Shown: positions 3,559 to 26,017, counted from the stretch's first letter. The stretch is DNA of 64,000 bases from an uncultured Gammaproteobacteria bacterium (GCA_964372415.1 CAYJQH010000002.1:21803-85802); one strand, 5' to 3'. Notes: generated by a model not told the origin, from the letters alone. Numbers and translations are program-made.

Positions 3559-3561
3559 GGG

Positions 3562-4383: not shown

Positions 4384-4404
4384 AATCTGTTTACTAACCT
4401 TAAA

Positions 4405-4492: not shown

Positions 4493-4532
4493 ATTCAAAT
4501 AAATTTCAATCCAGTATACCAGCTGATGGCGG

Positions 4533-5978
4533 TTATGTTACACGTTTCTTCAAAAAGCGAATCGCTTGGTCACGAGTCGTGACCTTACCGTGGTCACGAG
4601 CTTCCTCTAGCATACGTTGCAACTCCCCCACTTTGGGCCCAGGTTCAAGTCCTAGAAGATCGATAATCTCGCCGCCCGTGAGGAGTGGGGTTTTTATGGA
4701 TTCGAGAAGGCTATTTTGAGCGACAGCTTGACGCATGACCTCACCGGGAAGGTACGGAGCGGTTGTCGCATCCTTAACTCCCCGACCACGAACGTCGGCC
4801 TCGGTGACTTTCAAATATACCTCGAATGACGTTTCGCCGAGTCGACGGAGCAGTCGACGCACTGCATACACGTAAGATTCGTCATTCAAGTGACCGAGTT
4901 GGAGTTCGCGATACAACATTGAAGGCTTAAGATGATCTTTAACGATTCTTACCACGGAATCCTCGATCTCCCGACCAAAAGTAAACTTTTTAAGCAAACT
5001 CCGCGTCGGCTTCTCGCCTGCCTCCTCGTGGCCACGCGAACGTATTCGACCATCAATAATTGCTGTCGTTGTTGCCTTGCCTAGGTCATGACACAAGGCG
5101 CCTAACATTACCGTGAGCTGGTCTTCGAGGGTCAACTGACGATCCAAAATTAGCTTTGCGGCCTGATCGATAACCATCAGGCTATGAGTCCAAACGTCCC
5201 CCTCGGGGTGCCATTCAGGTTCCTGGTCTGTAGTCTTTAGAACAAACAGTTCTGGATAATATTTTTCGATAATCCCCAAAGCCCACATCAAACGAAAACC
5301 CACCGAAGGTAGCGTGGCTTTCAACAAAAGCTTACGCCATTCGTCGCTCACTCGTTCTTTAGGTAATTCGTTTAGGTCACCACGTTCGATCATTTGTGTC
5401 ATGAGTGCGAATGTCTTGTCTTCAAGGGTAAAGCCGAGGCGAGCCGCAAGTTGAATACCGCGAAAAACCCGTAAGGGATCTTCCTGAAAAGTCGCCGTGT
5501 CAACAACTTGCAAAACTTTTGCTTCAAGGTGAACCTGACCCTGATAAGGGTCATGAAGAACTTCCGTTAGAGGATCAAGACTTATGGCATTGACCGTGAA
5601 GTCCCGCCGGCGAGCCGCCTCACGAAACGACATTTCGGGCGCGCTCTCGGTGACAAAGCCCCTGTGTCCCTTGCCAACTTTAGACTCTCGGCGCGGCGTG
5701 CCGATGTCTATTTCGTATTCATCTGAATACACTTTCAGAATCCCAAATGACGAACCAACAAGATCAACTCGCGGGAACATTTCTTTCACAACCGAGTGAA
5801 GCTTGTCGGGGTGAACGCCGTAAACTTCGAGGTCAATGTCTTTTACTTCTTTACCGAGCAGTCGATCGCGCACATAGCCGCCAACCAAAAGCGCCCGCGG
5901 AGTCACGGGTGCATAAGTAGCATCTGGCTCAAGCTCGGCGATGCGTTTGGCAAACTCGAGAATTGCTTTGGGAAACAT
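4533..5978 (-). CDS. cca: CCA-adding tRNA nucleotidyltransferase (class II, with HD domain)
   Basis: GGYVRDRLLG polymerase-beta head motif, then an HD domain (HDLGK); 481 aa. Confidence 0.85.
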   Translation of the reverse strand: MFPKAILEFAKRIAELEPDATYAPVTPRALLVGGYVRDRLLGKEVKDIDLEVYGVHPDKLHSVVKEMFPRVDLVGSSFGILKVYSDEYEIDIGTPRRESKVGKGHRGFVTESAPEMSFREAARRRDFTVNAISLDPLTEVLHDPYQGQVHLEAKVLQVVDTATFQEDPLRVFRGIQLAARLGFTLEDKTFALMTQMIERGDLNELPKERVSDEWRKLLLKATLPSVGFRLMWALGIIEKYYPELFVLKTTDQEPEWHPEGDVWTHSLMVIDQAAKLILDRQLTLEDQLTVMLGALCHDLGKATTTAIIDGRIRSRGHEEAGEKPTRSLLKKFTFGREIEDSVVRIVKDHLKPSMLYRELQLGHLNDESYVYAVRRLLRRLGETSFEVYLKVTEADVRGRGVKDATTAPYLPGEVMRQAVAQNSLLESIKTPLLTGGEIIDLLGLEPGPKVGELQRMLEEARDHGKVTTRDQAIRFLKKRVT

Positions 5979-6114
5979 GGGCTAGTAAGAATAAACCATA
6001 TTCGTCATTGCGAAGGAGGTATTTATTTCCGACTGAAGCAATCTTTGGTTTACAGATTGCTTCGTCCCGCTCATATTCATTCGGGGTCCGCGCAAAGACG
6101 GAAATATGCAGTCA

Positions 6115-7716
6115 TCACAAAAGAGGGGTTCCGGTCATTTGAGGTGGCTGTTCAAGCCCAAGAATCTTTAGGAAAGTGGGGGCCACATCAGCCAGCATGC
6201 CAATTGGCGGCATAAGTGACAAATCACCGTTTGGTACATCACCAGCAATTGAGGGTTTGCCCTCAAATTCCTTGCCAACAATCCAAAATGGCACGGGGTT
6301 TGTGCTGTGCTCCTTATCTATGGCGTGGGTTTGTAAGTTTAAAACTTCTTCAGCGTTTCCGTGATCAGCAGTGATACAAACCACGCCGCCGGCTTCGAGT
6401 GTGGCCGCAACTATTTTACCCACACAATCATCTACCGTTTCTACAGCCTTGATGGTGGCAGTCACGTTTCCAGTGTGCGCTACCATGTCGGGGTTGGCAA
6501 AGTTCGCAACGATCACATCGTAATTGCCAGTTTGGATCTCTTTAACTACTCGTTCGGTAATTTGCGAGCCACTCATCGCTGGCTCTAAATCGTAACTCGC
6601 CACCTGAGGCGAGGGTATAAGCACTCTGTCTTCGTTTGCAAAAGGTTTCTCTCGTGTGCCGTTAAAAAAGAACGTCACATGGGCATACTTTTCGGTTTCG
6701 GCAATATGGAGTTGAACAAGTCCAGCATCAGAAATAACCTCGGTCAAACCTTTAGTGATCGATTCCGGCGGAAAAGCTACATCAACCGGGAGCCCCGCCT
6801 CATATTCGGTCATGGTGACAAAGGTTAAGTTTTTGATGAACTGGCGTGAGAATTTGTCGAACGATGGTAAAACAAAAGCTCTGGTTAATTGTCGAGCCCG
6901 ATCAGGTCGGTAATTAAAAAAAATTACTGCGTCCCCTTCTTTTACCGTGGCCTTGGGACGCCCAGCTTGAGTAAGAACAGTTGGTTTAAATTCCTCATCA
7001 TAAATTTCTTGGGCGTAAGATTCCTCAAGGGCCTTTAGTGGATCTTCGGCTGTGACCACACCCTGACCGTGAACAATGGCGTTATACGCCTTCTCAATTC
7101 GATCCCAACGATTATCACGGTCCATGGCAAAATAACGACCGGATAACGTAGCTAGATACCCCACGCCAAGTCTCTGAATTTTTTCAAGGAGACTTTTTAC
7201 AAAATCAAGGCCTGAGTTATAAAGCGTGTCCCGACCATCCAGAAAAGCATGCACCGCGACATCCTTGAGCTTAGCTTTTTTACACAAAGCGAGCAGTTGA
7301 TGACAATGATCATCAAACGAATGAACTTTGCCGGAAGACAGGAGTCCCATGAGGTGCAGAGTACCGCCACTTTCCTTAACCTTGGCAAAAGCTTTCTCAA
7401 AAACAGGATTTTTTTCAAAAGTCCCATCAACAATAGCTTTGTTAATTCGTGGCAAAGTTTGGTAATACACTCGGCCAGCGCCAATCGCCAAATGCCCGAC
7501 CTCAGAGTTGCCCATTTCACCCCAATTTAAACCAACATCGTCGCCCGAAGCGCGAAGAGTCATGGTTGGATAACGTTCAGTTAACATCTTAAAAGTTGGC
7601 GTGTTGGCTCTCGTAATCGCGTTTCCTTCACCGTCTGGCGCAACGCCAAAACCATCTAAGATAAGAAGAACCGCCGGACGCGGTCGCTCACCACCACGTG
7701 ATTGCTGTGTCCCCAT
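6115..7716 (-). CDS. gpmI: 2,3-bisphosphoglycerate-independent phosphoglycerate mutase
   Basis: 533 aa; LLILDGFG…NSEVGH…ITADHGN are canonical iPGM motifs. Confidence 0.9.
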   Translation of the reverse strand: MGTQQSRGGERPRPAVLLILDGFGVAPDGEGNAITRANTPTFKMLTERYPTMTLRASGDDVGLNWGEMGNSEVGHLAIGAGRVYYQTLPRINKAIVDGTFEKNPVFEKAFAKVKESGGTLHLMGLLSSGKVHSFDDHCHQLLALCKKAKLKDVAVHAFLDGRDTLYNSGLDFVKSLLEKIQRLGVGYLATLSGRYFAMDRDNRWDRIEKAYNAIVHGQGVVTAEDPLKALEESYAQEIYDEEFKPTVLTQAGRPKATVKEGDAVIFFNYRPDRARQLTRAFVLPSFDKFSRQFIKNLTFVTMTEYEAGLPVDVAFPPESITKGLTEVISDAGLVQLHIAETEKYAHVTFFFNGTREKPFANEDRVLIPSPQVASYDLEPAMSGSQITERVVKEIQTGNYDVIVANFANPDMVAHTGNVTATIKAVETVDDCVGKIVAATLEAGGVVCITADHGNAEEVLNLQTHAIDKEHSTNPVPFWIVGKEFEGKPSIAGDVPNGDLSLMPPIGMLADVAPTFLKILGLEQPPQMTGTPLL

Positions 7717-7760
7717 AACAGGGGCATTCTAGCATAAAACAGTAGATCGATTCAGATCCG

Positions 7761-8084
7761 CTACTGCTTTAATGCAACCTCCGGTGATTGAACCGAAATG
7801 TATTTAACGTTGGTGATTTTTGTGAGACCCAGAAATACCTCCCGTTCCTCAATGCTCGACAAAGAGCGAAGTCGATCAATTTCTGCTGCCAAGCGGTCAT
7901 TCTCTTGGCGTAGACTTTCGTTAGCTTCAATAAAATCGCGCATCATGTACCCCTTAGTAGATGCTGCATTGACCTGAATAATATACAAAATGCCAAAGGC
8001 TAAAATGAGACCGAGAACCAACACGCGCCACGTTTTTTCGTTGCTTATTAGGTGTCGCCAAATTCCTCCTCCTGTCATGGTCAT
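7761..8084 (-). CDS. ftsL: FtsL-like cell division protein (TM anchor plus coiled coil)
   Basis: 107 aa with a single TM helix followed by a leucine-rich coiled coil. Sits immediately downstream of rsmH, as in dcw clusters. Confidence 0.55.
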   Translation of the reverse strand: MTMTGGGIWRHLISNEKTWRVLVLGLILAFGILYIIQVNAASTKGYMMRDFIEANESLRQENDRLAAEIDRLRSLSSIEEREVFLGLTKITNVKYISVQSPEVALKQ

Positions 8085-8087
8085 ACT

Positions 8088-8942
8088 TTAGCGTCGTTCA
8101 GCCAAGCGCAATTTTGCGCTGCGTGCGCGCGGGTTATCTTCAACCTCGTCGCGGCCAGGAACGATCGGTTTTTTGGTAATGGATAAAAGTCCCTTCTGCT
8201 CTTTGAGCCACAACTTCACTTGACGATCTTCGAGCGAATGGAAGCTGATAACAGCCAGCCTACCGCCCGGTGTCAAGACTTCACGCGCTGCCTCCAAACC
8301 CTTGGCCAGTTCGCCAAGCTCATCGTTTACAATCATGCGGAGAGCTTGAAAAACTTTGGTCGCTGGATGAATTTTGCCCCGGCGGGCCACGACCTCTTCA
8401 ATAACTTCTGCCAGCTGCTTCGTGCTTGTAATGCGATCTCGCCGTCTGGCTTCAAAAATAGCTTTGGCAATAATCGCTGCCTTAGGTTCTTCACCTAACT
8501 GACGAAAGAGCGTTGCCAGTTCCTCGCGCGACCAGCTGTTCACCACTTCTTCGGCAGTTAACGACTGTTGTATGTCGTAACGCATATCGAGCGGGCCATC
8601 GTTCATGAATGAAAAGCCTCGAGCTGGGTCATCCACATGAACCGAGGAAAATCCCAGGTCCAGGAGTACCGCTTGAGCTCTCGTTACATGATTCCTAATG
8701 TCAGCGAACGAAGCGTGGACGAGGGTTACTCGTTCGCCAAATTCCCGCAATCGCTCAGTGGCTAGTTCAAGATTCCTCGTATCACGATCAAAACCGATAA
8801 GTTTGCCGTCCGGAGCGATTTGCTCGAGCATAAGACTCGCGTGTCCGCCAAGTCCCACGGTGCCATCAATCACAGTCATACCTGGCTTCAGCTGAAGCCC
8901 TTCGAGAATCTCTTTTGCTAGAACCGGGATGTGTTGGGTCAT
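8088..8942 (-). CDS. rsmH: 16S rRNA (cytosine1402-N4)-methyltransferase RsmH (MraW)
   Basis: HIPVLAKEILEGL…GTVGLGGHAS matches RsmH. The ORF track start (8963) is a GTG that overlaps repeat E2, so I prefer the ATG at 8942 (MTQHIPVL). Confidence 0.85.
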   Translation of the reverse strand: MTQHIPVLAKEILEGLQLKPGMTVIDGTVGLGGHASLMLEQIAPDGKLIGFDRDTRNLELATERLREFGERVTLVHASFADIRNHVTRAQAVLLDLGFSSVHVDDPARGFSFMNDGPLDMRYDIQQSLTAEEVVNSWSREELATLFRQLGEEPKAAIIAKAIFEARRRDRITSTKQLAEVIEEVVARRGKIHPATKVFQALRMIVNDELGELAKGLEAAREVLTPGGRLAVISFHSLEDRQVKLWLKEQKGLLSITKKPIVPGRDEVEDNPRARSAKLRLAERR

Positions 8943-8960
8943 AAGGAAGAACAACGCTGC

Positions 8961-9033
8961 CACTCCGAGCGAATGCGAGGAGTTAGGTCGGCGTGCTGTT
9001 TGGGGAACTAACCCCTCACTTTCGTTCGGGGTG
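8961..9033. repeat. Copy 2 of the 'E' intergenic repeat
   Basis: CCACTCCGAGCGAATGCGAGGAGTTAGGTCGG…ACTAACCCCTCACTTTCGTTCGGGGTGG. Matches E1 at 26 of 28 positions in the core and E3 in the 5' half. Confidence 0.7.
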
Positions 9034-9049
9034 GCAAGTAAGGCGAACC

Positions 9050-9481
9050 TTAAATACCCATTCCTCCCAATTGTTCAGCGATCGCTGTTGAATCCTCCTC
9101 GGCCTGTTTGGCGTAAGCCTCCCAGGTCGTCTTGTCCCATAGTTCCAAACGCGTCTGAACACCGACCATGATCACTTCTTTCCGTAGTTTTGCGAACTCT
9201 CGCAAATACTCCGGCACAATAAACCTTCCTTGCTTATCAAGCTCAACAGCCATAGCGCCAGCGAGCATAAAGCGCGCAAAAGCCCTAGAGTTGGCTTGCC
9301 CCAGGGGCAAACTAGCAATTTTTTCGGCCAGTTTCCCCCACTCCTCTTTAGGGAGCAAGAAAAGTGAAGCGTCGAGACCCCGCGTCACAACTGCCCCGTT
9401 CGCGAAGGTCTCACGCAACTTCACCGGAACGGCGAGCCGCCCCTTATCGTCGATGGTGATTTGGTATTCGCCAATGAGCAT
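9050..9481 (-). CDS. mraZ: Transcriptional regulator MraZ
   Basis: 143 aa with two MraZ/SpoVT-AbrB repeats (DDKGRLAVP…; DKQGRFIVP…). Confidence 0.85.
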   Translation of the reverse strand: MLIGEYQITIDDKGRLAVPVKLRETFANGAVVTRGLDASLFLLPKEEWGKLAEKIASLPLGQANSRAFARFMLAGAMAVELDKQGRFIVPEYLREFAKLRKEVIMVGVQTRLELWDKTTWEAYAKQAEEDSTAIAEQLGGMGI

Positions 9482-9498
9482 AGCAGTGTGAATTCCAT

Positions 9499-9543
9499 GT
9501 CACGAGTAACCCATCGCCAAAGAGTTGACGGGTTACTCATGAC
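9499..9543. promoter_or_regulatory. 14-bp inverted repeat (GTCACGAGTAACCC-N17-GGGTTACTCATGAC) just upstream of mraZ
   Basis: Near-perfect inverted repeat (13 of 14) lying 18-62 nt upstream of the mraZ ATG on the minus strand. Candidate operator or promoter-embedded hairpin. Confidence 0.4.
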
Positions 9544-9809
9544 AAGGGGAAGTTTCCCGAAATTCGGACACCATTATTTGCTGCATGACTACGTTGCGGA
9601 ACTCAGATTTTTTCCTTCCGTACGGTTTAAGTACGCCTCAAAAAATCTTCCCCGCGCCTTGCCCTGCAGCAAATACTGGCGTCCTCTGTTGAACAACAGA
9701 ATAATCAGCACACCCCACTTTGTGCCGCTGAGCACCACTTTACACCATTATTTTACCAACCCAAACCAAAAACCACCTTTTCTGTGGATAAAATTTACTT
9801 TAACCTAAT

Positions 9810-11150
9810 TCAGCTCTTTTTCTTAAGCGGCGAAATTCCAAGTGATCTTCGACTTCTGAGTACTCGATGATAGCTACCAGCAAAGCGATGCGCTTCATCA
9901 CGCGCTTTTTGAAATGTGTCTTTGAAGGCTTGTGCCACGCGACGCAGCTCGGCATTTGTCGTATCGTAAACCAAGCGATCTTGCTTTCGATCAAAACCTT
10001 TGGCAATGCCAATGACCGGAATTTTAAGGTCCATTTCTTTTAGTACCTCGTTGACCCGATTGACCTGCCCTTCTCCACCATCAATGATCATGATGTCCGG
10101 AAGCGGCCAAGCGTGCGGCGAAACCTTGTTGCGTGTTAGGCGTCGACGGAGCATCTCCTCCATTGCTCCGACATCATTGGCACCTTCAAAACCTTTTATT
10201 TTAAATTTTCGATATTCGCTCTTGTTTGGTTTGCCAGCCTCAAATACCACCATCGAACCAACGTTCGAGGTACCGGAAATATTTGCAATATCGTAAGCCT
10301 CGATACGACCGAGCGCGTTGATGTGTTTATTAATATCGTCGGCTTTATCAATAAACTCTTCCCGCATCAAGAGTCCGATATCTTGAACGTGTTCAAGAGC
10401 AAAAACCCGATCACGCAAGGAGGCTGCTTTTTCGAACTCATTCGCTCTCGCGGCGGCATTCATCTCACGTTTTAATTGCTTAAGAAGCGTATCTTTTCGT
10501 CCACTAAAGAAAAGCATGAGCTTTCGAATATTCCGTCGATACTCTTTTGGGAGAATAGTTCCAGCACAAACCCCCGGGCATTTGCCAATTTGAGCATCAA
10601 AACACGGCTTACTTGAACCGCTGACTTCCGGTGGGTTGCAGGTCGACCACGGAATAAATCGACGCACGAGGTCGAGTGCTATCTTGAGCGACCGAGCGCT
10701 CAAATACGGTCCATAAACAGCCAAAAATTGTCGTCGAGCTTTGAGTTGTAAAAATTTCGAAAATGGTTGAATACCCAAGCGCTCGAGATCAAGGCCACGC
10801 ATGAGTACGGGTTTAGGAAAGTCTTCGTTCGTAAGACAGAGGTAAATAAAACTCTTGTCATCACGCCCGGCAATGTTGTATGGCGGTTTGTGGGTACGAA
10901 TATTATTTGCTTCGAGAACTAGCGCTTCAAGCACAGATCCGGTTTGCAGGTAATCGATACGCGCAATGTTAGCCACCAGATCAGCTGTCCGCTGATTTTC
11001 TTTTTTTCCCACGAAGTATGAACCAACGCGCTTCTTGAGCGATGTCGCCTTACCTATATACAGCAACTTATTTTTGAGGTCGTAATAAAAATACACCCCA
11101 GGAGCATCGGGTAATTGATTATTGAGAATTTGGATCTCCTGCGGGATCAT
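9810..11150 (-). CDS. uvrC: Excinuclease ABC subunit C (UvrC), short form lacking the C-terminal (HhH)2 domain
   Basis: GIY-YIG N-terminus (GVYFYYD…LLYIGKA), Cys-rich region, UvrB-interacting region (…EFEKAASLRDRV…) and RNase-H-like endonuclease domain. At 446 aa it ends before the usual helix-hairpin-helix tail. Confidence 0.8.
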   Translation of the reverse strand: MIPQEIQILNNQLPDAPGVYFYYDLKNKLLYIGKATSLKKRVGSYFVGKKENQRTADLVANIARIDYLQTGSVLEALVLEANNIRTHKPPYNIAGRDDKSFIYLCLTNEDFPKPVLMRGLDLERLGIQPFSKFLQLKARRQFLAVYGPYLSARSLKIALDLVRRFIPWSTCNPPEVSGSSKPCFDAQIGKCPGVCAGTILPKEYRRNIRKLMLFFSGRKDTLLKQLKREMNAAARANEFEKAASLRDRVFALEHVQDIGLLMREEFIDKADDINKHINALGRIEAYDIANISGTSNVGSMVVFEAGKPNKSEYRKFKIKGFEGANDVGAMEEMLRRRLTRNKVSPHAWPLPDIMIIDGGEGQVNRVNEVLKEMDLKIPVIGIAKGFDRKQDRLVYDTTNAELRRVAQAFKDTFQKARDEAHRFAGSYHRVLRSRRSLGISPLKKKS

Positions 11151-11155
11151 ACGAA

Positions 11156-12190
11156 TCAGTCGGCGAGAATCACTAAACTATTAAGAACCTCTTCATAAAT
11201 CTTTTCGTCAAACTCAGGGTTAGCGGCAATTACGTAGTATCGGGTTGGACCTTCCTCCGCTCGAACATCGGTCACGATGTGACGACCATTACGCCACTCT
11301 GGTTGATCGGCAAAATCAGCTACGTTGGCTTTCTTTTCAATGTCGTAACGCTTGGCGGTGTAACTATTAGCAATCGTCAGATCTGCAGTCGCATGGATAG
11401 TTACGGTCCGCAACGTTAGGAATTCGCTCGCATCAAAGTAGCGAATAAAAATTTGCGATCGTTCGCGGGCGGTCCCCTCGCCTTCGAGACTGAAGATATT
11501 CAGAGCTTCGATCGACGGCACGTATTCAACTTCCATGTTCTCGGGAATAATGAACTGAATCGCGAACACATTCGCTCCCCTCTCGCTCGCGTCAAAACGC
11601 CGAGGTGAAGTAAGCATGCTTACCTCGTGCTCAGCAAAATAATTGGTCGGGTTCAACCAGGTACTAACCTCCTCGGCCGTACGTTCGTAACCATTGATCT
11701 TGATTGGCTCACCTTGGTACAAACCAAAGTGGAGATGCTTGCGCTCACCGTCGGTCTCTGGTGATCGATCGTCTCCTAAATTCCCGATCATTTGACCTTT
11801 AATCACGGTATCTCCTGGCTCAAGCGTTACGGAGCCAAGATCGAGATGACCATACAAAGCGTTCACGTCGCCGTGATCAATGAGCACAAAACCGCCGTAT
11901 CCCGAAACAAATTCTGCTCGCTCAACGGTGCCATCAGAAATTGCTACCACCGGCACTTCCTCGCCCACATCTTCGTATTCCACATCGTCGCCGACGTGAT
12001 AGCCCACAAAGCGGTCGCTAATGTATTCGCCAAACGACTTAACTGTTCGGCGTTCCACGTAATCATCAATCGGTAAGGTAACACTGGGGGTTACGTTAGT
12101 AACCCCGTTATTCGAGGTTTTTGGTAATGCGCTCGGTGCACAACCTGCGCCGAGCGCTAACAAACTCACGATCGCGAGAAGTTGATACAT
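11156..12190 (-). CDS. Secreted M23-family metallopeptidase (LytM domain), possible lipoprotein
   Basis: Signal peptide ending …LALGAGC. LytM motifs HxxxD and HLHFG (DHGDVNALYGHL…KHLHFGLY). The C-terminal ~150 aa are of unknown function. Confidence 0.75.
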   Translation of the reverse strand: MYQLLAIVSLLALGAGCAPSALPKTSNNGVTNVTPSVTLPIDDYVERRTVKSFGEYISDRFVGYHVGDDVEYEDVGEEVPVVAISDGTVERAEFVSGYGGFVLIDHGDVNALYGHLDLGSVTLEPGDTVIKGQMIGNLGDDRSPETDGERKHLHFGLYQGEPIKINGYERTAEEVSTWLNPTNYFAEHEVSMLTSPRRFDASERGANVFAIQFIIPENMEVEYVPSIEALNIFSLEGEGTARERSQIFIRYFDASEFLTLRTVTIHATADLTIANSYTAKRYDIEKKANVADFADQPEWRNGRHIVTDVRAEEGPTRYYVIAANPEFDEKIYEEVLNSLVILAD

Positions 12191-12192
12191 AT

Positions 12193-14724
12193 TTACTTTT
12201 TGGCACGTCCCACATAGGAACGCAAATATTTACCAGTGTGACTTAATGGTTTACGCGCAATATCTTCTGGGGTACCCGCAGCGACCACAGTGCCACCTTT
12301 GTCGCCTCCTTCGGGGCCCATATCTATAACCCAGTCAGCAGTTTTGATGACGTCCAGGTTGTGCTCAATCACCACCATCGTGTTTCCTTTGTCCACCAAT
12401 CGGTGAAGAACTTCAAGGAGCTGCCTGACATCGTCGAAGTGCAGACCGGTCGTCGGTTCATCGAGAAGGTAAAGCGTTTTACCTGTCTGTCGTCGTGCGA
12501 GTTCGGTGGCGAGCTTCACTCGCTGCGCCTCGCCGCCCGAGAGCGTAGTCGCCGACTGGCCAAGAGTGATGTACGACAAACCAACCTCATTTAAGGCTCT
12601 GAGCTTATTGTGAATGTCAGATATATCTTTAAAAAACTGCTCGGCGATTTCGACCGTCATGCTGAGCACATCCGAGATGTTTTTTTCTTTATAGGTGACC
12701 TCAAGTGTTTCCCGATTAAAACGTTTCCCTTTGCACACTTCACAAACCACATACACCGTGGGCAGAAAGTGCATCTCAATCTCAATCACGCCGTGGCCTT
12801 CGCAGTGATCGCAACGACCACCCGGCACGTTAAAACTAAAACGACCCGATTTATAACCGCGGAAGCGCGCTTCCTCGGTGGCAGCAAATAATTCACGAAT
12901 TGGCCCCCAAGCACCAGTGTAGGTAGCGGGATTGGAGCGTGGCGTGCGACCGATGGCTGATTGATCAATAAGAATAGCTTTATCGATGTATTCAATGCCT
13001 AAAACTGCTTTATTTTTCCCTGGCTCGTCCCTTCCGCCATAAAGTTTCTTGGCTATCGACTTGTACATCACATCGTAGGCCAGGGTAGATTTGCCAGAAC
13101 CGGAGACACCGGTGACGCAAATAAATTTACGGAGCGGAAAGTCGACATCAACATTTTTGAGATTATTTTCGTGAGCCCCACGAACTTTAATCGCTCCGGC
13201 ATCCTTAGCGCGACGCTCTCGGGGAACAGGAATAGCCTCATCACCTCGTAAATAGGCTGCGGTTCGTGATTTTTTATTCTTAAAAATATCGGGCGTGCTG
13301 CCGGAACATACCACTTCTCCGCCATGAACTCCTGCCCCGGGCCCAATTTCTACCAAGTAATCTGAACGGCGAATCGTGTCTTCATCATGTTCAACCACAA
13401 GTACGGTGTTCCCGAGATCACGAAGATCCTCGAGCGTCTTAATCAGACGTTCGTTGTCGCGTTGATGTAAGCCAATGGTTGGCTCGTCGAGGACGTACAT
13501 GGCGCCTACTAAGCGCGAGCCGATTTGTGAAGCGAGTCGGATACGCTGCGCTTCACCTCCGGAAAGCGTACCGGCCGTTCGATTGAGCGTCAGGTAATGC
13601 AAACCGACATCCAACATAAAACCTAGCCGATTCGAGATTTCTTTAAAGATGCTCGTGGCAATCTCTTGTTGACGATCGGTTAGGCGTAGCTCAAGTAAAA
13701 AATTGATCGCCTCGTCGACTGACATAGCGGTCAGGTCAACAATCGATTTGCCACCTATAAATACATGCAAGGCTTCTTTGCGGAGTCGTGCTCCAAGACA
13801 GACTCCACACAATTCATCGGAGAACAATTCACGGGTGCCAAGGCCTGAACATTCCGAACAAGCGCCGTAAGGGCTATTGAAGGAAAAAAGTCGCGGCTCG
13901 ATTTCCGGAAATGAAAAACCATCAACTGGGCAACTAAATTTAGCCGACAAGTAACGTTCGGCGCCGTCGGGCATAAGCACGAGTGCCAGATCTTGGCCAC
14001 GATCGATGGCCTGCTCAAGGGCATCGGCTAGTCGCTGTCGAGATTCTTTAGTCGGCGAGGTCAACATGGCAGTCGGAATAGTATCGATGACGAGCTGAAT
14101 GTCGTGCGCTTTATAACGCGACAGCTCAATGCGCTCATTCAGACGGAACATCTTGCCATCAATCCGAACTTTGGCAAAACCGGCATTGTAAAGATCGTAC
14201 AACATTTGGTAGTATTCACCCTTTCGTCCGCGAACAATAGGCGCAAGAATCGAGATCTCGGTGGGCTTTTGGGAAACCTCGGACTTTGCTTTCAATTCTT
14301 TAATAACAATATCGACCATCTCATCGACAGTGAGTTTTTCGATCTTTCGGCCGCACTCTGGACAATGAGGTTCGCCAATACGCGCGTAGAGCACGCGTAG
14401 GTAGTCGTAAATTTCGGTAATCGTGGCGATTGTAGAACGAGGATTTCGGGAATGTGCCTTTTGATCGATAGAAATAGCTGGCGACAGACCCTCGATTTCA
14501 TCAACGTCAGGCTTTTGCATATTGCCCAAAAATTGTCGGGCGTAGGCCGACAAAGACTCGACGTATCGGCGCTGACCTTCGGCAAAAATGGTATCAAATG
14601 CCAACGAGGACTTCCCCGATCCAGAAAGCCCGGTGATACACACCAGTTTGTTGCGCGGCAATTCAAGCGAAATGTTCTTTAAGTTATGTTCGCGAGCACC
14701 TTTGATGATGATCTTGTCTTGCAT
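12193..14724 (-). CDS. uvrA: Excinuclease ABC subunit A (UvrA)
   Basis: 843 aa with two ABC ATPase modules ([20 protein letters not shown]) and zinc-finger Cys clusters. The N-terminus [20 protein letters not shown] is diagnostic. Confidence 0.9.
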
Positions 14725-14760
14725 ATATATTTTCAGTATTGTGCGGGTTGGAGGTATTTA

Positions 14761-15201
14761 ATGTCTTCCGAAAAACCAGAAGTGAGGCAAGCCGGTTGCG
14801 GCGGTCTGGGCTCGGCTGAAGGCGGTTTGCCGCGCGTCGATCCGAGACACGGACACGATCCGGGCGATGAGGACCCGACTGTCGATAAACCTATTTTCGA
14901 AGACCCAACGGTGCTCAATGATCTGCCACGCGACGCTTCGACCAACCGCGTCGGCCCACCGATCTATGAGCTGCCAACTGAGGCAGGACGCACCACCTGG
15001 GGCTGGGATCAACAGACTCGCTCTCCAGCCGAGATCACCGCGGCCATGTTTCTCCTCACCACGATGGGGCGTCTCCCCTATCGAGACATTCTTCTCCTTG
15101 CCGATCAGTGTGTAGGCGCGAACCTGAACAGCTTGTCGGACGAGGATCGTCAACTGTTCTTCGAGCGCCTGGCAGCGCTCAAGAGCCGCTACCAGAGTTA
15201 A
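14761..15201 (+). CDS. GC-rich small hypothetical protein (146 aa, Pro/Asp-rich) inserted between uvrA and uvrB
   Basis: ATG at 14761 preceded by GGAGG at -12. Codon usage is strongly GC-biased relative to the flanking genes. It exactly fills the uvrB-uvrA intergenic gap in the opposite orientation, and its 3' end overlaps the uvrB stop by 23 nt. Confidence 0.5.
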
Positions 15202-17248
15202 TCGGCAACTCCTTGCTGCGACGCCTCGCTTGTTTCTTAGCAGGCGTTTTTTGTTTACCTGAAAGTTCTTTTTCGAGCAGGGCTATCTCGTCACGCAGAA
15301 TTGCCGCTGTTTCGAAAAGCAAGTTGGCGGCTGCGGCTTTCATTTCGACCTTTTTCTCATTTATTACTTCTTCTAGCTCCTTAGGACTTGCCGTGAGTTC
15401 GATCTGAAGAATTTGCTTAGTTTTATCTTCGCTCACCTCGCCGAGCATGGCTCTGATATCAGAAATCTTTTTATTAATACTCTTTGGCGTAATGCCATGT
15501 TCTTTGTTGTACGCGAGCTGAAGTACCCGACGGCGCTTGGTTTCGTTTAGTGCTCGTTCTAGTGAACCGGTTTGATGATCCGCATAAAGCACCACGAGAC
15601 CGTTAACGTTGCGTGCGGCACGACCAATAGTTTGCACGAGCGATGTTTCGGATCGAAGAAAGCCCTCTTTATCGGCGTCTAGAATACCAATAAGCGAGAC
15701 CTCCGGCAGGTCTAATCCTTCACGAAGTAAGTTAACTCCGACCAGGACATCATATGCGCCACGTCGCAAATCAGAGAGAATCGTAATGCGTTCCAGGGTT
15801 TCGATATCAGAGTGTAAATAAGCGACTTTTATTCCCTCATCCTTCAGATACTGCGCCAAATCTTCAGCCATTTTTTTAGTCAGAGTCGTAATTAGTGCGC
15901 GTTCTCCTTGATCAACTCGCTCCCGGATTCGCTTGATGATGTCTTTTACCTGACCGGGGTGATCGCCACTAGGAATAACTGGCAGGACAAGTGTTTGTGG
16001 GTCAACCAGTCCGGTAGGGCGGACAATTTGCTCGACGACCTGTTCCGAAATCTGTCGTTCGTAGGGTCCCGGGGTGGCTGACACCATCACCATCTGATTA
16101 ACTTGGCCAATAAATTCATCAAAAGTTAGCGGTCGATTGTCTTTAGCTGAGGGCAACCGGAATCCGTGCTCAATTAGCGTTTGTTTACGGGCTTGATCAC
16201 CAGCATACATACCCCCGATTTGCGGCAAGGTGACGTGTGACTCGTCGACTATTGTCAAAAAGCCATCCGGAAAGTATGACAATAAAGTTGATGGCGGCTG
16301 ACCCGGCGATCGGCCATCGAAGTGTCGCGAATAATTTTCAATGCCACTGCAGTAACCAAGATTACGAATCATTTCTATGTCGTATCTTGTGCGACGCGAT
16401 AATCGTTCGTATTCAAGAACCTTGCCCTGGGTATCAAACTCTTTTAGACGGGCTCCCAGTTCGGATTCAATATCCTTAAGAGCCCGCTCGCGTTCCCCGG
16501 GTGCGCTCATGAAGTGTTTGGCCGGAAAAAGCCAAACGTCTTCTGGTTGGTCTTTGATCTCGCGGGTTACCGGGTCGAGGCGAAAGATTTGTCGTACCTT
16601 CTCACCTTCAAGAACGATGCGATAAATCACCTCTTCATTGACCGGCATGACCTCGATAACGTCACCGCGAGCGCGGAACTGACCGCGTGTCAGATCACTT
16701 GTTGTGCGAGTGAATTGCATCTCGACCAGTCGCCGCATGATCTCCTCGCGAGCCTGTTGCTGCTGAGCGGTCACCCGCAGCACAACCGCTTGATACTCCT
16801 CAGGCGAGCCCAAACCGTAAATGCAAGACACCGAGGCCACGATAATGACATCCTTACGAGTTAGCAGCGCTTGCGTGGCTGCGTGCCGAAGGCGATCGAT
16901 CTCGTCGTTGATCGTGGCTTCTTTTTCGATATACGTGTCAGTTCGTGGCAAGTAGGCCTCTGGCTGATAGTAGTCGTAGTACGAAACGAAGTATTCGACG
17001 ACGTTATCGGGAAAAAATTCGCGAAACTCGTTACACAGTTGAGCAGCTAGAGTTTTGTTGTGCGCTATAACGAGCGTTGGCTTTTGGATCTGCTGAATCA
17101 CGTTGGCCATCGTAAAAGTTTTGCCTGAGCCAGTTACGCCAAGCAATGTTTGGCGCGACAAACCCTCACGAAGTCCGTTCGTGAGTTGCTCGATCGCTTT
17201 AGGCTGATCACCAGCCGGCTGATACTCGGAATTTAACTTGAATTGCAT
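15179..17248 (-). CDS. uvrB: Excinuclease ABC subunit B (UvrB), with a ~24-aa basic C-terminal extension
   Basis: [11 protein letters not shown]alker A, helicase motifs, and the UvrC-binding helix (…[12 protein letters not shown]…). The tail …[19 protein letters not shown] extends past the usual terminus. Confidence 0.9.
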
Positions 17249-17359
17249 AACTACAGAGATGCCTCACTTTCGTTTGGCATAAAATCAGCAAATGCCCCAA
17301 GAGCGGAGGCTCTAGGGGTATGTTCGTATTTTGTACGGTTACAATAACATGCCTAATTA

Positions 17360-17863
17360 TCACTGTCGAGAAGTATCCACACCTCCGCCAAGACTTTTTT
17401 TCTCAATCACGTCAAGGGTTCCAGCCGGCACCTTACTTCGCCATGCTTTATTGCCACTTGCAATCAACTGACGAATTTCCGCGCCAACAATGCCTGGCAC
17501 TGGCACCACTTTTTTCGTGGCGATATTTTTCTTTTCGAAAATTGATCGTACCGCTTCGTTGCCACTCCAAATCACCGGCTCGGTTGGGTTATTAGCAGCA
17601 TCGAGCACATGGACTGCCCAATCTTCATCAGCTGGCGCGTCCTTAACAACGGCAATAGTTGCGTCCGGCAGATTGGCCGCCAACAGGGCGCCAGAAATCA
17701 TTTCGCGACGTTGTTCTAGTGTGAAAGGGTCTTCGTTACCGTTCTTGACCCCATCGCAAATAACCACGACAACGCTATCAGACAATTTTGCCATGCCTTG
17801 GACAACCATCAGGTGTCCGTTATGAAATGGCTGAAATCGACCAGGGAAAATAAGCGTGGACAT
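17360..17863 (-). CDS. Archaeal-type nicotinamide-nucleotide adenylyltransferase (NadM-like cytidylyltransferase fold)
   Basis: GRFQPFHNGH (HxGH) motif at the N-terminus; 167 aa. Confidence 0.7.
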   Translation of the reverse strand: MSTLIFPGRFQPFHNGHLMVVQGMAKLSDSVVVVICDGVKNGNEDPFTLEQRREMISGALLAANLPDATIAVVKDAPADEDWAVHVLDAANNPTEPVIWSGNEAVRSIFEKKNIATKKVVPVPGIVGAEIRQLIASGNKAWRSKVPAGTLDVIEKKSLGGGVDTSRQ

Positions 17864-17866
17864 AAG

Positions 17867-18787
17867 CTAGTCTGTCATTAGTCGCTCTTTGGTCATAACC
17901 GGGAGCGCAAATTTTCGAGTCAGCTGAGTTAAAAGAAGCGGCGGAACATCAATCTTGGACATGTCATTTGTCCCTGTGCCGCGCCCCGACAAGGCCTCAA
18001 GATAACCAATGTCATGAGGATCAAAACCCATGAGCGTGGCCGCTACGGCATCGGCGGCAACTGGATCAGTACTCGCCAACACTACTCCCATTGAGACCGG
18101 CGTGCCATCAACTGGGCCATCACCTTCCATGCCCAGGATACCATCAATAACTACCAAATCGCAGGGTAAATGTTTAAAAAGCTGAGCAATGAGCTCATTG
18201 GCTGCTGCCAGTCCATAAGCGTTGAGCCAGGGAGCCCGAGACCAAACCCGTCCCTGAATACCTACCCGTGAGGGCACAATCATCGTTGCCTCAGACCACG
18301 AACTGATAGCGAGTGACGCCCCATAAACATGATGGGTCTTAAGAGGCGCGACGGCAATTCGTAAATCACAATCACGCACCAATCGTGGCCGACGAACCGC
18401 GACAGTTCGACCTTCAACCAGATATGATTCCTCGTAAATATCTTCGTCGTTCAAGTCGACGAGTGAAAGATTGACGTACTGCGTGATTAAGCCTTCATAG
18501 CCAAAATTTCTAAAACTAGCCTTAGTGCCGTAATGCGCCCCGTCGGCGATCACAATAGGAACATCGGTATATACCCGAATCTGATCCAAGACTCCCCGTA
18601 CCGCGTCAACGTGGGTTGAGGCAAGTTGCAGTTCATGATGCGTTAGGTTGGGCTGAATTAGAATCTGCTTGGCGGATCTAAAACGAGCCACAGCCTCATT
18701 GCCAAGCTCATCGATTGCCTGGCGCACAGCTTTTCGACGATGTTCGTTCTGGATCAAGGCAACCTTCTGCATAGCTGGCCTGAGCAT
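17867..18787 (-). CDS. DUF362 domain protein
   Basis: 306 aa with the GILGMEGDGPVDG motif characteristic of DUF362. Confidence 0.5.
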   Translation of the reverse strand: MLRPAMQKVALIQNEHRRKAVRQAIDELGNEAVARFRSAKQILIQPNLTHHELQLASTHVDAVRGVLDQIRVYTDVPIVIADGAHYGTKASFRNFGYEGLITQYVNLSLVDLNDEDIYEESYLVEGRTVAVRRPRLVRDCDLRIAVAPLKTHHVYGASLAISSWSEATMIVPSRVGIQGRVWSRAPWLNAYGLAAANELIAQLFKHLPCDLVVIDGILGMEGDGPVDGTPVSMGVVLASTDPVAADAVAATLMGFDPHDIGYLEALSGRGTGTNDMSKIDVPPLLLTQLTRKFALPVMTKERLMTD

Positions 18788-18815
18788 ACACAGGCTACCT
18801 TAGAGAGGCAATGAG

Positions 18816-20051
18816 TTATTCGTAACGCAAAGCTTCAATTGGACTTTTCCGGGAAGCGCGTAGCGCTGGGTAAAGCCCAAAAACAATACCAGTAATAGCC
18901 GCTACGACAAGCGCTGCCCCGGCGGCTGAAGAGGGAAAAATATAAGTCCACTCCATATTGATTATTGAGCTTAAAATCTTCGATGCCAAAAACGACAATC
19001 CTGATCCGAAAATTATCCCTATTAGGCCGCCAAGAGTTGTGAGTAATAAAGCTTCAAAAAGAAACTGCAAAAGAATGTCTCTGTTTCTGGCTCCGAGTGC
19101 TTTACGCAAGCCTATCTCTTTGGTCCGTTCAGTGACAGCCACCAGCATAATATTCATAATGCCAATACCACCGACTACGAGAGAAATCGCCGCAATCGCC
19201 GAAAGAAAAACGGTCAAAATGTTGGTTACGCTAGCTACTTGTTTGGCTGCATCAGCTTGGGAAGTAACATGAAAATCGTCGTTTATAGGATCGTCAATAG
19301 AATGTTCCCGACGGAGGGTGCTTAGAATTTCCTCCTTAGCGAGCGGTACAGCTTCTTCACTTATGGCCTGAGTAATAATCATGTTGTAGTGATCAATGTC
19401 CACCATATCCTGAGCGGTGGTGTAAGGGATGAGCACCATGAAATCGACTTCGAAGAGACCAAAAAAACCCTTCTTATCAAACGTGCCAATAACTTCAAAT
19501 TCTTCGTTCTGTATCTCAATCGTCTGCCCAACTGGATCTTGGTTCGGGAATAATTCCTGACGCACCTCAAACCCAAGTACCGCAACTTTACGCTTAGAAG
19601 AGACATCTTCCTCCCTTAGCAAGCGACCGGTGGAGAGTGAGACACCAAAAACCGAGGCAAAATTTTCCGTTGAACCGGTAGTACTCGCTTCGGCCGAAAA
19701 CTTGTCAATCATCACCCGGCCAGGAACAAAAACAACAGGGGCTAAATCAACCAAATTTGGTGCGTTTGCTTTATCACTCAACACCTCAAGATCACTGTTT
19801 TTAAGAGAATTAGACAAAAGGGACACAAGATCAGAAGGCGTTTCGGGCATCGGTCCTGGCTCAATAATAATCGTGCCGAGGCCAAGCCCTTGAATTTGAC
19901 CCAAAATCAAATTCTCGGCCCCCTGCCCCACGGACTGGATGAGGGTGATTGAGGTCACGCCAATAACAATGCCAAGAATCGTGAGCGCAGAACGCGTGGC
20001 GTGGGCCCAAAGGCCCGACAAGGCGGTCTTGAAAGCGTGAGATATTTTCAT
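18816..20051 (-). CDS. ABC transporter permease, MacB/FtsX-like
   Basis: N-terminal TM helix, large periplasmic domain, and a C-terminal FtsX-like 3-TM module; 411 aa. Confidence 0.8.
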   Translation of the reverse strand: MKISHAFKTALSGLWAHATRSALTILGIVIGVTSITLIQSVGQGAENLILGQIQGLGLGTIIIEPGPMPETPSDLVSLLSNSLKNSDLEVLSDKANAPNLVDLAPVVFVPGRVMIDKFSAEASTTGSTENFASVFGVSLSTGRLLREEDVSSKRKVAVLGFEVRQELFPNQDPVGQTIEIQNEEFEVIGTFDKKGFFGLFEVDFMVLIPYTTAQDMVDIDHYNMIITQAISEEAVPLAKEEILSTLRREHSIDDPINDDFHVTSQADAAKQVASVTNILTVFLSAIAAISLVVGGIGIMNIMLVAVTERTKEIGLRKALGARNRDILLQFLFEALLLTTLGGLIGIIFGSGLSFLASKILSSIINMEWTYIFPSSAAGAALVVAAITGIVFGLYPALRASRKSPIEALRYE

Positions 20052-21169: not shown

Positions 21170-21243
21170 TCCGGGATCGTCTAAGGGCAGGACAGCGGCC
21201 TTTGAAGCCGTGAATCTTGGTTCGAATCCAAGTCCCGGAACCA
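21170..21243 (+). tRNA. tRNA-Gln (anticodon TTG), CCA encoded
   Basis: Manual cloverleaf: acceptor TCCGGGA/TCCCGGA, anticodon loop CTTTGAA, T-arm CTTGG-TTCGAAT-CCAAG. Confidence 0.85.
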
Positions 21244-21465: not shown

Positions 21466-23025
21466 TTAGAGGTCGTCGAGATCGTTCGACATGTCCTCGA
21501 CCGGCACGGCTTCGTCTTCGACGAAGTCAACCGAGGTGGCCATGGTCCGCCGGATGGCGGTCTCCACAGCCTCGGCGATCTCCTCGTTTGAGAGCAGGGA
21601 CGGACGCTGCGGGTGCGACAGCGACCCGTTCAGCAACATGCCCGCCTCGACGAAGAAATACCAGTGCTGCGCCGGCTCCGGCAGATCTCGGCCGGCCGCC
21701 TCGCCATTATGGAAGTTGTCGATGATCCGCCGAACGTCAGACACGAGGTCAGCATGATCGATCCTGACCTCGGACCAACCGGCGCGTCGGGCCTCGGCGA
21801 GAGCGATCTCCTCGGCGATCTCCCAGATCTGCTGCTTGTTGTCATCGGACGTGAAGACGCTCACGTTGCCGCTCGATCGACGGATGACGACCACCTGAGC
21901 CTGATGCACGCTCCGAAGCCACGAGCTCATCTTTCGGAGATTCGTCTCGGCGAAGGCCACTCGCACCCCAGAAATCTGGCGCAAGAGGCCGTTATTTTCC
22001 TGGAAGGATTGTGCGCATTCCTCTTGAAACTCGCGAGCACTCGCCAAGTAGCAGTTGAAGATCTTGAAGACCTTCCGGCCAAGCTCCTCCGGGGACATCT
22101 TGCCCCAAATGTTCAAAGCCGTGACCACGGAGTCGAGCTCGAACGGCAACTGCTTGCGGTCCGGCTCGCGGTACCGCTTGAGCTCCCTTAGAAGGTAGCG
22201 CAAGAGCTTGGCCTCACGATCCTCCACCCTCTTGAAGTTGAGGCCAAAGAACTTGGCCACCTCGTCCGCCGTCGTGGACGGCGGAAAGTGTCCGCCTTCA
22301 ATATCCACGAAGATGGTTCGCGGATTCTCCAGGTACTCTCTCAGGGTTTCCGCGTCCGCGTAGACGAGCTGCGGCTCGTTCAGATACCGCCCGACGATCC
22401 AAGCCTTGGCCAATCCATTCAAGGTGGCGTAGGCCGGAACCACGATAGTCGGTCGACGGAGCTTGCGCATGGCTTCGGCCGTCATCGGCTCGGAAGCCGT
22501 AGACAGAGCGAGGGGCACAGTGAGCGGTCGCGCCATGGGCTGACAGCTCGCGCCATAAAGATGCGCATTGACCACGGCCTCGATCCAGTTGAAGACCCAC
22601 AAGTCGTCGACCTTCTGGTCCTTGCCCCACCATTCGAGCGTCTTGACCACCTCCCCCCATTCGAGGCGAGTTTGTCCGGACACTGCACCCTGGTCATCCT
22701 TGCGCGTGTCAGCGCGGCGAATTTCCGAAAGCAGCGTCTTGTACTCGGATCTGTCGAACAGTCCAAGTTCCTTGGCGGTCAGAGTGGCGGCGCACTCGCC
22801 GGGCAATCGGCCATCCAGCCGGTGCTCGTCAAACATTCCGCCACCAATGCCGATCAGGGCCACCGTGGAGTCACCAAGAAAGGTGCGCTTGGCGCGCTCC
22901 TCATCCCAGAACTCCACCGTGGCTTCAGGATTGGCCCGGCGGATGAGCGCCGCGGCCACGTGCTCGTCGGCATGTGCCCCTCGGTGGGAAACGGCCAGCC
23001 TGAGCTTGAGCGGATCGAGAGCCAT
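21466..23025 (-). CDS. GC-rich hypothetical protein with an N-terminal MYG1/UPF0160-like metal-dependent hydrolase motif and an acidic C-terminal tail
   Basis: 519 aa. N-terminal VSHRGAHADEH…IGIGGGMFDEHR resembles the HxGxFHADE…GG.YD..HH pattern of the MYG1 family. AGGAG lies 8 nt upstream of the ATG. GC content is much higher than in the neighbouring genes. Confidence 0.45.
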   Translation of the reverse strand: MALDPLKLRLAVSHRGAHADEHVAAALIRRANPEATVEFWDEERAKRTFLGDSTVALIGIGGGMFDEHRLDGRLPGECAATLTAKELGLFDRSEYKTLLSEIRRADTRKDDQGAVSGQTRLEWGEVVKTLEWWGKDQKVDDLWVFNWIEAVVNAHLYGASCQPMARPLTVPLALSTASEPMTAEAMRKLRRPTIVVPAYATLNGLAKAWIVGRYLNEPQLVYADAETLREYLENPRTIFVDIEGGHFPPSTTADEVAKFFGLNFKRVEDREAKLLRYLLRELKRYREPDRKQLPFELDSVVTALNIWGKMSPEELGRKVFKIFNCYLASAREFQEECAQSFQENNGLLRQISGVRVAFAETNLRKMSSWLRSVHQAQVVVIRRSSGNVSVFTSDDNKQQIWEIAEEIALAEARRAGWSEVRIDHADLVSDVRRIIDNFHNGEAAGRDLPEPAQHWYFFVEAGMLLNGSLSHPQRPSLLSNEEIAEAVETAIRRTMATSVDFVEDEAVPVEDMSNDLDDL

Positions 23026-25984: not shown

Positions 25985-26017
25985 CGGCTCGGACCCCTTG
26001 GTCCGAGCTGCTTTTTA
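25985..26017 (+). terminator. Rho-independent terminator of the 401-aa gene
   Basis: GCTCGGACC-CCTT-GGTCCGAGC followed by TGCTTTTT. Confidence 0.7.

Follow-up and report, generated by a model that had tools for sequence, protein, structure and literature searches.

An antisense orphan gene in the uvrB-uvrA spacer of three Patescibacteria genomes, and a predicted terminator that lies within the coding sequence of the UvrB basic tail

Results

An opposite-strand ORF fills the space between uvrB and uvrA

The window, by which we mean the whole stretch of 64,000 nucleotides that was analysed, carries uvrB and uvrA as neighbours on the minus strand and, between them, a plus-strand ORF of 146 codons that we call orfX. 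The features on which the analysis bears are the following.

12193..14724, minus strand: uvrA, 843 aa, Pfam UvrA_inter and ABC_tran (identical product); its start codon lies 36 nt from the orfX start, in divergent orientation
14702..14731, plus strand: sigma-70-like promoter candidate of orfX (TTGATG, 18 nt, TATATT)
14750..14754, plus strand: predicted GGAGG Shine-Dalgarno (SD) site of orfX, 6 nt 5' of the ATG
14761..15201, plus strand: orfX, orphan ORF of 146 aa, with its ATG at 14761 and a stop codon ending at 15201
15179..17248, minus strand: uvrB, 689 aa, convergent with orfX
15179..15262, minus strand: coding sequence of the UvrB C-terminal extension (residues 663-689) and stop codon
15220..15256, plus strand: predicted Rho-independent terminator of orfX, with a hairpin at 15220-15248 (10 bp, one bulge) and T6 at 15247-15252, then GTTT

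A first-pass annotation had already described the two neighbouring genes with the 146-aa ORF between them, and these coordinates were confirmed. It had also put the gap at 455 nt; the gap is indeed filled by the ORF but measures 454 nt (14725..15178), and the 23-nt overlap that it reported between orfX and the uvrB stop falls at 15179-15201, at the 3' end of both genes. Over the Pfam gathering thresholds, UvrB contains ResIII, UvrB_inter, Helicase_C, UvrB and UVR. Downstream of uvrA come an M23 peptidase gene and uvrC, and uvrA, the M23 gene and uvrC are spaced only 2-5 nt apart.

A family of three syntenic members

Homologues were sought among ~15 billion proteins overall, by three word-indexed searches of 5.8 billion clusters and by HMMER, run exhaustively over 1.84 billion representatives. 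In the first word-indexed search (5.8 billion protein clusters) the orfX product matched itself alone. The exhaustive HMMER scan added one homologue, P0002 (132 aa, E 1.4e-9), and a profile search added another, P0003 (143 aa); a further profile search gave no more members, and the family thus consists of the window protein, P0002 and P0003. Another candidate from the metagenome scan, L084, turned out to be a false positive on a eukaryote-like contig. The two homologues, whose loci are referred to as L083 and L085, are 35-42% identical to the window orfX product and 49% identical to each other. Like orfX of the window, both occupy the uvrA-uvrB spacer in antisense orientation, overlap the uvrB 3' end (by 35 and 23 nt) and share the order uvrC, uvrA, orfX, uvrB, a cytidylyltransferase-like gene and DUF362. 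Between the window and L083, UvrA is 86% identical, UvrB 80% and UvrC 80%, whereas the orfX product reaches only 35-38%. The window locus itself was also recovered in independent assemblies of two other samples, which differ from it by 0 and 2 SNPs; orfX contains none of these.

Outside these three loci nothing was found. As the first-pass annotation had noticed, the product has no known domain: searches of Pfam, PHROGs, NCBIfam and PADLOC gave no match at E<=1, the best hit of a PDB profile search had E=1.9, and Rfam gave no match. Six-frame translations of the best 80 uvrB loci of GTDB species did not match the orfX HMM, the spacer translated in six frames did not match the spacers of relatives, and no paralogue of orfX occurs in the window. 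In the literature we found no earlier description of such a gene between uvrA and uvrB.

Comparative signs that orfX is protein-coding

Is such an ORF a gene? In dinucleotide-preserving shuffles of the segment, an ATG-initiated ORF of at least 146 aa arose on either strand in 23 of 2000 cases, and a chance ORF is excluded mainly because of the conserved syntenic homologues. In all three species orfX is intact, its indels are all in frame and the initial Met-Ser is kept. The three pairwise comparisons gave 65/55/80, 55/54/84 and 47/29/72 differences at codon positions 1/2/3, the third-position differences being counted over 129, 134 and 131 aligned codons, respectively. In the sense frame the pN/pS ratio was 0.52-0.77, which is high, against 0.87-1.12 for the exact antisense frame; synonymous sites are saturated. 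The orfX frame also gave the best cross-species bit scores (131, 70 and 65), whereas any other of the six frames reached at most 56. The ATG and GGAGG are kept in all three genomes, with spacers of 6 nt in the window, 5 in L083 and 4 in L085.

These data bear on the idea that the spacer serves as a structured part of the operon or yields a non-coding RNA, antisense or regulatory, in which case orfX would be an incidental and untranslated frame. Such a view would suit an ORF that is fully antisense to the presumed uvrB-uvrA read-through, that lies in GC-rich DNA where frames tend to stay open (both strands are open in the window) and that shows a relatively high pN/pS. But a frame left to chance would not be expected to stay intact in three lineages whose proteins are only 35-49% identical, with in-frame indels only: at 60% GC we estimated ~4.5 stops per 140 random codons, and none was seen. 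The third-position excess is found in the plus frame only, the start codon and GGAGG keep a proper spacing, and the Rfam search was negative. We consider the non-coding reading improbable. The first-pass annotation had itself allowed for an antisense artefact of GC-rich DNA; the third-position excess, the pN/pS of 0.52-0.77 and the in-frame indels point away from it.

The opposite possibility is that the real gene is the minus-strand ORF at 14758..15153 (131 aa), on the strand of uvrB and uvrA, and that orfX is its shadow. The operon-sense orientation would be the more conventional one, and the exact antisense frame of the window runs open for 147 codons, in frame with uvrA. In L085, however, this frame contains an internal stop and in L083 it is out of frame with uvrA; its pN/pS is 0.87-1.12, its cross-species scores are lower and it has no conserved start. 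The open antisense frame is explained by a GC-rich sense gene that lacks TTA, CTA and TCA codons, of which the orfX orthologues contain 0-1 where native usage predicts 2.6-4.7, and selection for an open antisense frame was ruled out by the internal stop in L085. We therefore give the minus-strand ORF very little credence. Taken together, these comparisons indicate that orfX is a genuine small protein-coding gene of a narrow Patescibacteria (CPR) lineage, lying antisense in the uvrB-uvrA spacer, with its coding status, conservation and overlap geometry documented by the alignments.

orfX belongs to a class of GC-rich, SD-led orphans

The GC-rich codons, which the first-pass annotation called foreign-like, and the GGAGG that it noted were both borne out. 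The GC content of orfX is 0.596 (GC1/2/3 of 0.67/0.49/0.63) against 0.49 (0.58/0.40/0.49) in 39 long ORFs of the window, and the GGAGG is exceptional in this genome. Native genes of the window genome have essentially no SD site, 4-mer matches occurring at chance level. Among the 40 ORFs listed, only orfX and the GC-rich orphan at 21466-23025 are preceded by a 5-mer SD; in a third GC-rich orphan, 24825-25976, a GGAGG is present when the start is re-set to TTG 24825. The same split is seen in L083, where uvrA, uvrB, uvrC, iPGM, rsmH and mraZ lack an SD while the GC-rich small ORFs 4637-5122 and 7074-7415, as well as orfX, have a GGAGG at +5. None of the GC-rich SD-led orphans has a Pfam or PHROG match. 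On these counts orfX is a member of a visible class of GC-rich, SD-led orphan cassettes, which may be imports from a donor that uses SD sites or a native set with a special mode of translation.

A published report found the anti-SD motif in just 48% of Parcubacteria (PMC9297842), and the SD-less translation of the native genes fits this figure. It also tempers the usability of the orfX GGAGG, which we regard as a predicted SD in a group where some members lack the anti-SD (PMC9297842).

The predicted terminator and the UvrB tail share the same DNA

Nineteen nucleotides past the orfX stop begins a predicted terminator that lies entirely within uvrB codons 665-677. The scan of the orfX 3' end described it as an 8-pair stem followed by TTTTTTGTTT. 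The window hairpin has a dG of -19 kcal/mol (z -3.1), and the homologous hairpins reach -26.1 kcal/mol (z -5.2) in L083 and -28.5 kcal/mol (z -3.1) in L085, each followed by U7. Across the three loci the T-tract is invariant and the stem sequences differ; in a manual reading, the inner stems of L083 and L085 are distinguished by two double changes that preserve pairing and two single compatible changes. In all three genomes the hairpin and U-tract 3' of orfX thus have the sequence features of a Rho-independent terminator. Within positions 1-20000 it is the sole terminator-like candidate with an uninterrupted T6. Textbook terminators also follow other plus-strand features of the genome, namely two tRNAs and the 24825-25976 orphan.

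On the other strand the same nucleotides are codons. Read directly on the minus strand, cgcttgtttcttagcaggcgttttttgtttacc becomes GGT AAA CAA AAA ACG CCT GCT AAG AAA CAA GCG, i.e. codons of the UvrB tail. The codons of UvrB residues 665-677, the K/R-rich core of this tail, form the strand complementary to the hairpin and U-tract of the orfX terminator; the final 7 uvrB codons and the stop overlap the 3' end of orfX. With Lys codons opposite the U-tract and Arg, Pro and Ala codons opposite the GC-rich stem, the terminator would double as coding sequence of the basic UvrB tail. The UvrB tails of L083 and L085 both contain GKKKTRR. Read together, the two strands show that one piece of DNA provides both the codons of the basic UvrB tail and the predicted 3' end of the orfX transcription unit.

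The first-pass annotation had seen a K/R-rich extension of ~24 aa, and this held: the Pfam UVR match extends to residue 661 of the 689, leaving 27-28 residues, 8 of which are K or R. It had gone on to suggest that inserted DNA encoded the tail, and here only one part stands. The tail is the reverse complement of the orfX terminator and 3' end, but basic tails also exist without orfX. When the UvrB C-termini of relatives were compared, as that annotation had proposed, long tails that are K/R-rich over 15-30 residues past the UVR (UvrC-binding) hairpin were found in other lineages (Uhrbacteria L004, L010, L012, Planctomycetes L043, L029, L036, L071, L057), none of which has an orfX homologue. 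Because basic tails occur in lineages that have neither orfX nor an antisense terminator, the tail is not diagnostic of an insertion. Nor are basic UvrB tails in general antisense terminators, an idea that we rejected because most long-tailed UvrBs elsewhere are not the reverse complement of a hairpin and T-run. Among the loci compared, tail and antisense terminator coincide only in the three orfX genomes.

The orfX product is acidic and half disordered

The orfX protein is acidic in all three genomes (pI 4.6-4.7; 4.7 in the window). Residues 1-88, rich in Pro, Asp and Gly, are predicted to be disordered, and AF2 gave them no structure; the low-confidence models place three helices after them, at 89-101, 107-118 and 127-145 (pLDDT 52 at full length, and 59 for residues 56-146 run with the 3-sequence alignment). 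With this low-confidence model, the best Foldseek match in the PDB had E=3. So far the product is a hypothetical protein from three metagenomic genomes.

Conservation is concentrated in short stretches: the Met-Ser start, GCGG (residues 12-15), P-R-V-x-P (residues 24-28), a 27-residue block, RD.STN.VG.P.Y.LP.E.GR.TWGWD (residues 57-83), and L-[ST]-[DE]-E-x-R-Q in the C-terminal helix. An acidic, proline-rich linker varies in length between the proteins. A disordered half bearing a linear motif, followed by a three-helix C-terminal domain, is in these models the anatomy of a binding or adaptor protein. The protein has evolved quickly under moderate purifying selection. Two specific readings of the motifs were rejected. 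The PcrA/UvrD helicase-interaction motif, [VIL]-D-x-x-T-G-E-[VIL]-[VILT] (PMC8318588), is absent, the TGE triad being found in none of the three sequences. A lipoprotein reading of the AGC/GCGG motif fails because the 10-20 residues before Cys13 are charged or hydrophilic in all three proteins, with no h-region.

What ties orfX to excision repair is its position. As the three members come from one syntenic context, their positional conservation is inseparable from shared ancestry; the three genomes are not independent evidence and do not prove an excision-repair link.

The cassette is older than the split of the three species

In many bacteria, among them the Firmicutes (Bacillus subtilis, L025), uvrB and uvrA form an operon with the same one-strand gene order, an arrangement common among the relatives that we retrieved. 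Compared with this usual operon, the cistrons of the window are 454 nt apart with an opposite-strand gene between them. The best UvrB identity among the best 80 uvrB loci of GTDB species was 64% (Magasanikbacteria, Uhrbacteria), and the junctions in other Patescibacteria vary. The first-pass annotation had proposed to look for a short spacer in relatives: one exists in L006 (Parcubacteria), where it is 68 nt long, whereas L013 has ~315 nt that contain no ORF, and L008, L005, L003 and L038 have from one to several unrelated genes between uvrB and uvrA. This variable content makes a lineage-specific gain at the uvrB-uvrA junction plausible.

The GC content is raised in all three orthologues (GC 0.58-0.60 and GC3 0.64-0.68, against a GC3 of 0.50-0.59 in their uvrB), which makes any acquisition an ancient one. 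In the first-pass annotation, the same ORF with a native-like composition in relatives would have spoken against an insertion; the relatives do carry the ORF, but its composition is not native-like there either. An insertion was not recent: the same gene, site, GC excess and GGAGG recur in two further species, saturated at synonymous sites relative to the window. The orfX cassette is older than the split of the three species, whose UvrBs are 80% identical.

The strongest form of the insertion idea, in which GC-rich foreign DNA recently entered the uvrB-uvrA junction of the window genome and extended the uvrB frame, can be weighed on this basis. It would readily explain a GC content of 0.60 against 0.49, a GGAGG in an SD-less genome, a spacer content that differs across Patescibacteria, and a UvrB tail encoded by the terminator and 3' end of the cassette. 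But two other species, whose UvrB is just 80% identical and for which dS is saturated, have the same gene, of the same composition and at the same site, and basic UvrB tails also exist without orfX. No direct or inverted repeats beyond chance flank orfX, and searches of IMG/VR viral contigs, GenBank phages and PLSDB plasmids turned up no relatives. A recent foreign insertion is accordingly most improbable. A recent genomic islet or mobile insertion was rejected likewise: the composition is atypical, but there are no repeats and no mobile homologues, and the gene is present in both of the closest relatives found. The proposal that an insertion remodelled the end of uvrB thus survives in part, as a lineage-specific gain that is plausible but not recent; the searches found neither insertion scars nor a donor for orfX.

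An older origin could be of two kinds. On the first, orfX was born de novo and in place: the spacer had widened in the ancestor that the three species share, and the gene emerged from its antisense strand. The absence of any homologue beyond the three syntenic loci in ~15 billion proteins favours this, and so do the disorder of half the protein and its fast evolution, both typical of young genes. A gene born in place does not easily account for a composition well over the native level at all three codon positions, nor for a complete foreign-style expression kit (GGAGG and intrinsic terminator). Other GC-rich orphans, in the window genome and in L083, carry the same signals, and this sharing suggests a common outside source or a common special regime. 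We regard de novo birth as a serious but rather doubtful origin. On the second, which our preferred account includes as a possibility, the orfX cassette was acquired from elsewhere at an ancient date.

Predicted expression of orfX against the uvrB-uvrA direction

The promoter candidate of orfX overlaps the 5' end of uvrA: its -35 lies within uvrA codons 5-7, its -10 adjoins the uvrA start codon, and it ends 30 nt 5' of the orfX ATG. At the homologous position L085 has TTGATG-16-TAGAAT, and L083 has TTGATG-16-TAAGAT, which scores 8/12 and is under the scan threshold. The candidate -35 is pinned by the UvrA codons I-I-K, and sigma-70-like matches occur at chance frequency in the window genome, which limits the weight of the candidate. 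The AT-rich -10 may instead be an A/U-rich leader for SD-less initiation of uvrA. We infer that orfX uses this promoter. For the minus strand, the scan yielded neither a terminator-like site within the spacer nor a promoter candidate that is conserved at all three loci; in L083 a weak promoter-like site on this strand lies inside orfX, and uvrA might have its own promoter there. A GAAC-N4-GTTC SOS (Cheo) box was found near none of uvrA, uvrB and orfX.

Since the spacer shows no minus-strand terminator and no conserved uvrA promoter, uvrA is presumably read through from uvrB. In the simplest reading, the expression of uvrA to uvrC would depend on this read-through. The orfX cassette would comprise a promoter candidate overlapping the uvrA 5' end, the GGAGG, an ORF of 146 codons and an intrinsic terminator; its transcription would run head-on into the uvrB-to-uvrA read-through, and its transcript would be an RNA complementary to the spacer and to the uvrB 3' end. 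Expression of orfX and of uvrA/uvrC would then be antagonistic, in the manner of an excludon.

Discussion

The whole of the data is best explained, and we think probably so, by an ancient and self-contained orfX cassette whose terminator is shared with the UvrB tail and whose transcription we infer to interfere with uvrA. What is new in orfX is first the family itself: it is a new orphan protein family, antisense-nested and with its terminator embedded in a neighbouring coding sequence. Small ORFan proteins are known from CPR/Patescibacteria, and orfX resembles them in having no detectable family, a narrow distribution, a small size and a fast evolution. It differs from other CPR ORFans in its fixed position inside a DNA-repair operon, and in belonging, within an otherwise SD-less genome, to a visible subclass of single-gene cassettes that are GC-rich, SD-led and equipped with terminators.

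The arrangement also recalls excludons. As described in PMC12288877 and PMC3377988, overlapping transcription of neighbouring genes in an excludon leads to interference and to RNase III cleavage. With the excludons of Listeria and other bacteria the orfX locus shares a predicted antisense overlap with the uvrB 3' end and with the read-through, known here from the sequence. The geometry predicted in this case, in which orfX has its terminator within uvrB and its promoter candidate within uvrA and the spacer lacks a minus-strand terminator, would be one that gives transcriptional interference and RNase III-sensitive duplexes, and an excludon-like effect on uvrA expression would follow from it. 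The differences are just as clear: classical excludons involve the long UTRs of divergent or convergent genes, whereas with orfX a whole protein gene is nested in an operon spacer and its terminator lies inside the coding sequence of the neighbour.

A bolder proposal goes further and makes orfX and the UvrB tail a co-evolved, dual-use module. In a lineage with no obvious SOS system, orfX would serve specifically to regulate nucleotide excision repair: its transcription would throttle the read-through from uvrB into uvrA-uvrC, and its acidic, disordered protein would bind a repair partner through GR.TWGWD, for example the basic UvrB tail, while the GC-rich SD-led orphans would form a separately translated accessory pool. 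We find this proposal unlikely as it stands.

If the shared-terminator cassette is what it appears to be, it would clearly exemplify how an intrinsic terminator can double as coding sequence for the basic tail of a conserved repair enzyme. It would explain where such a basic tail comes from, with the U-tract giving Lys codons and the GC stem Arg, Pro and Ala codons. An independently expressed gene would lie head-on in the DNA-repair operon of a reduced-genome symbiont, and the UvrB:UvrA ratio could in this way be set with no classical regulator involved. Finally, GC-rich orphans with a GGAGG in an SD-less genome would be a signature of acquired or specially translated CPR genes, and would raise the question of whether the ribosomes of such CPR bacteria use the SD interaction at all.

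Gene context and the uvrA-orfX spacer

Nearly all genes in the first part of the window (positions 1-24000) lie on the minus strand, and many of them are separated by gaps of 0-5 nt, as is the case for uvrA, the M23 peptidase gene and uvrC. The orphan gene situated between uvrA and uvrB, orfX, was the sole plus-strand gene in about 24 kb among the long ORFs that we examined. The divergent spacer between uvrA and orfX was compared in the window and in L083 and L085, two loci of related Patescibacteria with the same uvrA-orfX-uvrB order. The 34-nt spacer of L085 contains a perfect 10-bp palindrome, ATTACGTAAT (positions 1996-2005), the 8-bp core of which, TTACGTAA, is found in L083 (positions 9973-9982). 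This palindrome is missing from the window, where the corresponding sequence is TTTCAGTATT. It may be an operator in the species of L085 and L083.

The exact antisense frame of orfX (14758-15201, minus strand) is open over 147 codons and in frame with uvrA. Over the same interval, orfX has no TTA, CTA or TCA codon, where native codon usage would give 4.7 (P=0.006). The open antisense frame is not conserved; indeed, it contains an internal stop in L085 and is out of register with uvrA in L083. The metagenome scan for orfX gave a single match, OOQC01020390.1 (47% identity across 32 residues). This 1.3-kb contig has no coherent bacterial ORFs, and we took the match to be a false positive.

GC-rich orphan genes and Shine-Dalgarno usage

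Other GC-rich genes of the window, together with tRNA genes, are as follows.

GC-rich genes and tRNA genes of the window
21170-21240, 26139-26210 and 26373-26444: tRNA genes
21466-23025, minus strand: GC-rich orphan gene, 519 aa, GC 0.61, GC3 0.78
24825-25976, plus strand: GC-rich orphan gene, 383 aa, GC 0.60, GC3 0.76
62521-63948, minus strand: moderately GC-rich ORF, 475 aa, GC 0.546, GC3 0.63

The 519- and 383-aa orphans, both carrying either AGGAG or GGAGG, flank the native ftsX/ftsE pair; the 383-aa gene is followed by a strong terminator (25985-26010). Searches of Pfam and PHROG gave no match for these two genes, nor for the 475-aa ORF, which has no Shine-Dalgarno (SD) sequence.

Across the whole window and L083, housekeeping-type genes lack an SD sequence, their SD 4-mer matches being at chance level; perfect GGAGG sites with a spacing of 4-6 nt are found on GC-rich lineage-specific ORFs. 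This pattern is consistent with the absence of the anti-SD reported for many Parcubacteria (PMC9297842); the 16S 3' end of the organism itself lies outside the window.

UvrB and the uvr junctions

The domain-2 loop of UvrB carries the PcrA/UvrD interaction motif in other bacteria. This helicase-binding motif is [VIL]-D-x-x-T-G-E-[VIL]-[VILT] (PMC8318588). In the translated UvrB of the window, the loop reads L-D-P-V-T-R-E-I-K (residues ~238-246; 16510-16536, minus strand), with TRE where the motif has TGE.

The uvrA-uvrC junction is occupied in the window by the M23 peptidase gene (344 aa, 11156-12190) and in L083 by a different gene, a GGAGG-led 113-aa orphan (7074-7415, minus strand, GC 0.605). 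Small orphan cassettes are thus found repeatedly at the junctions of this uvr array.
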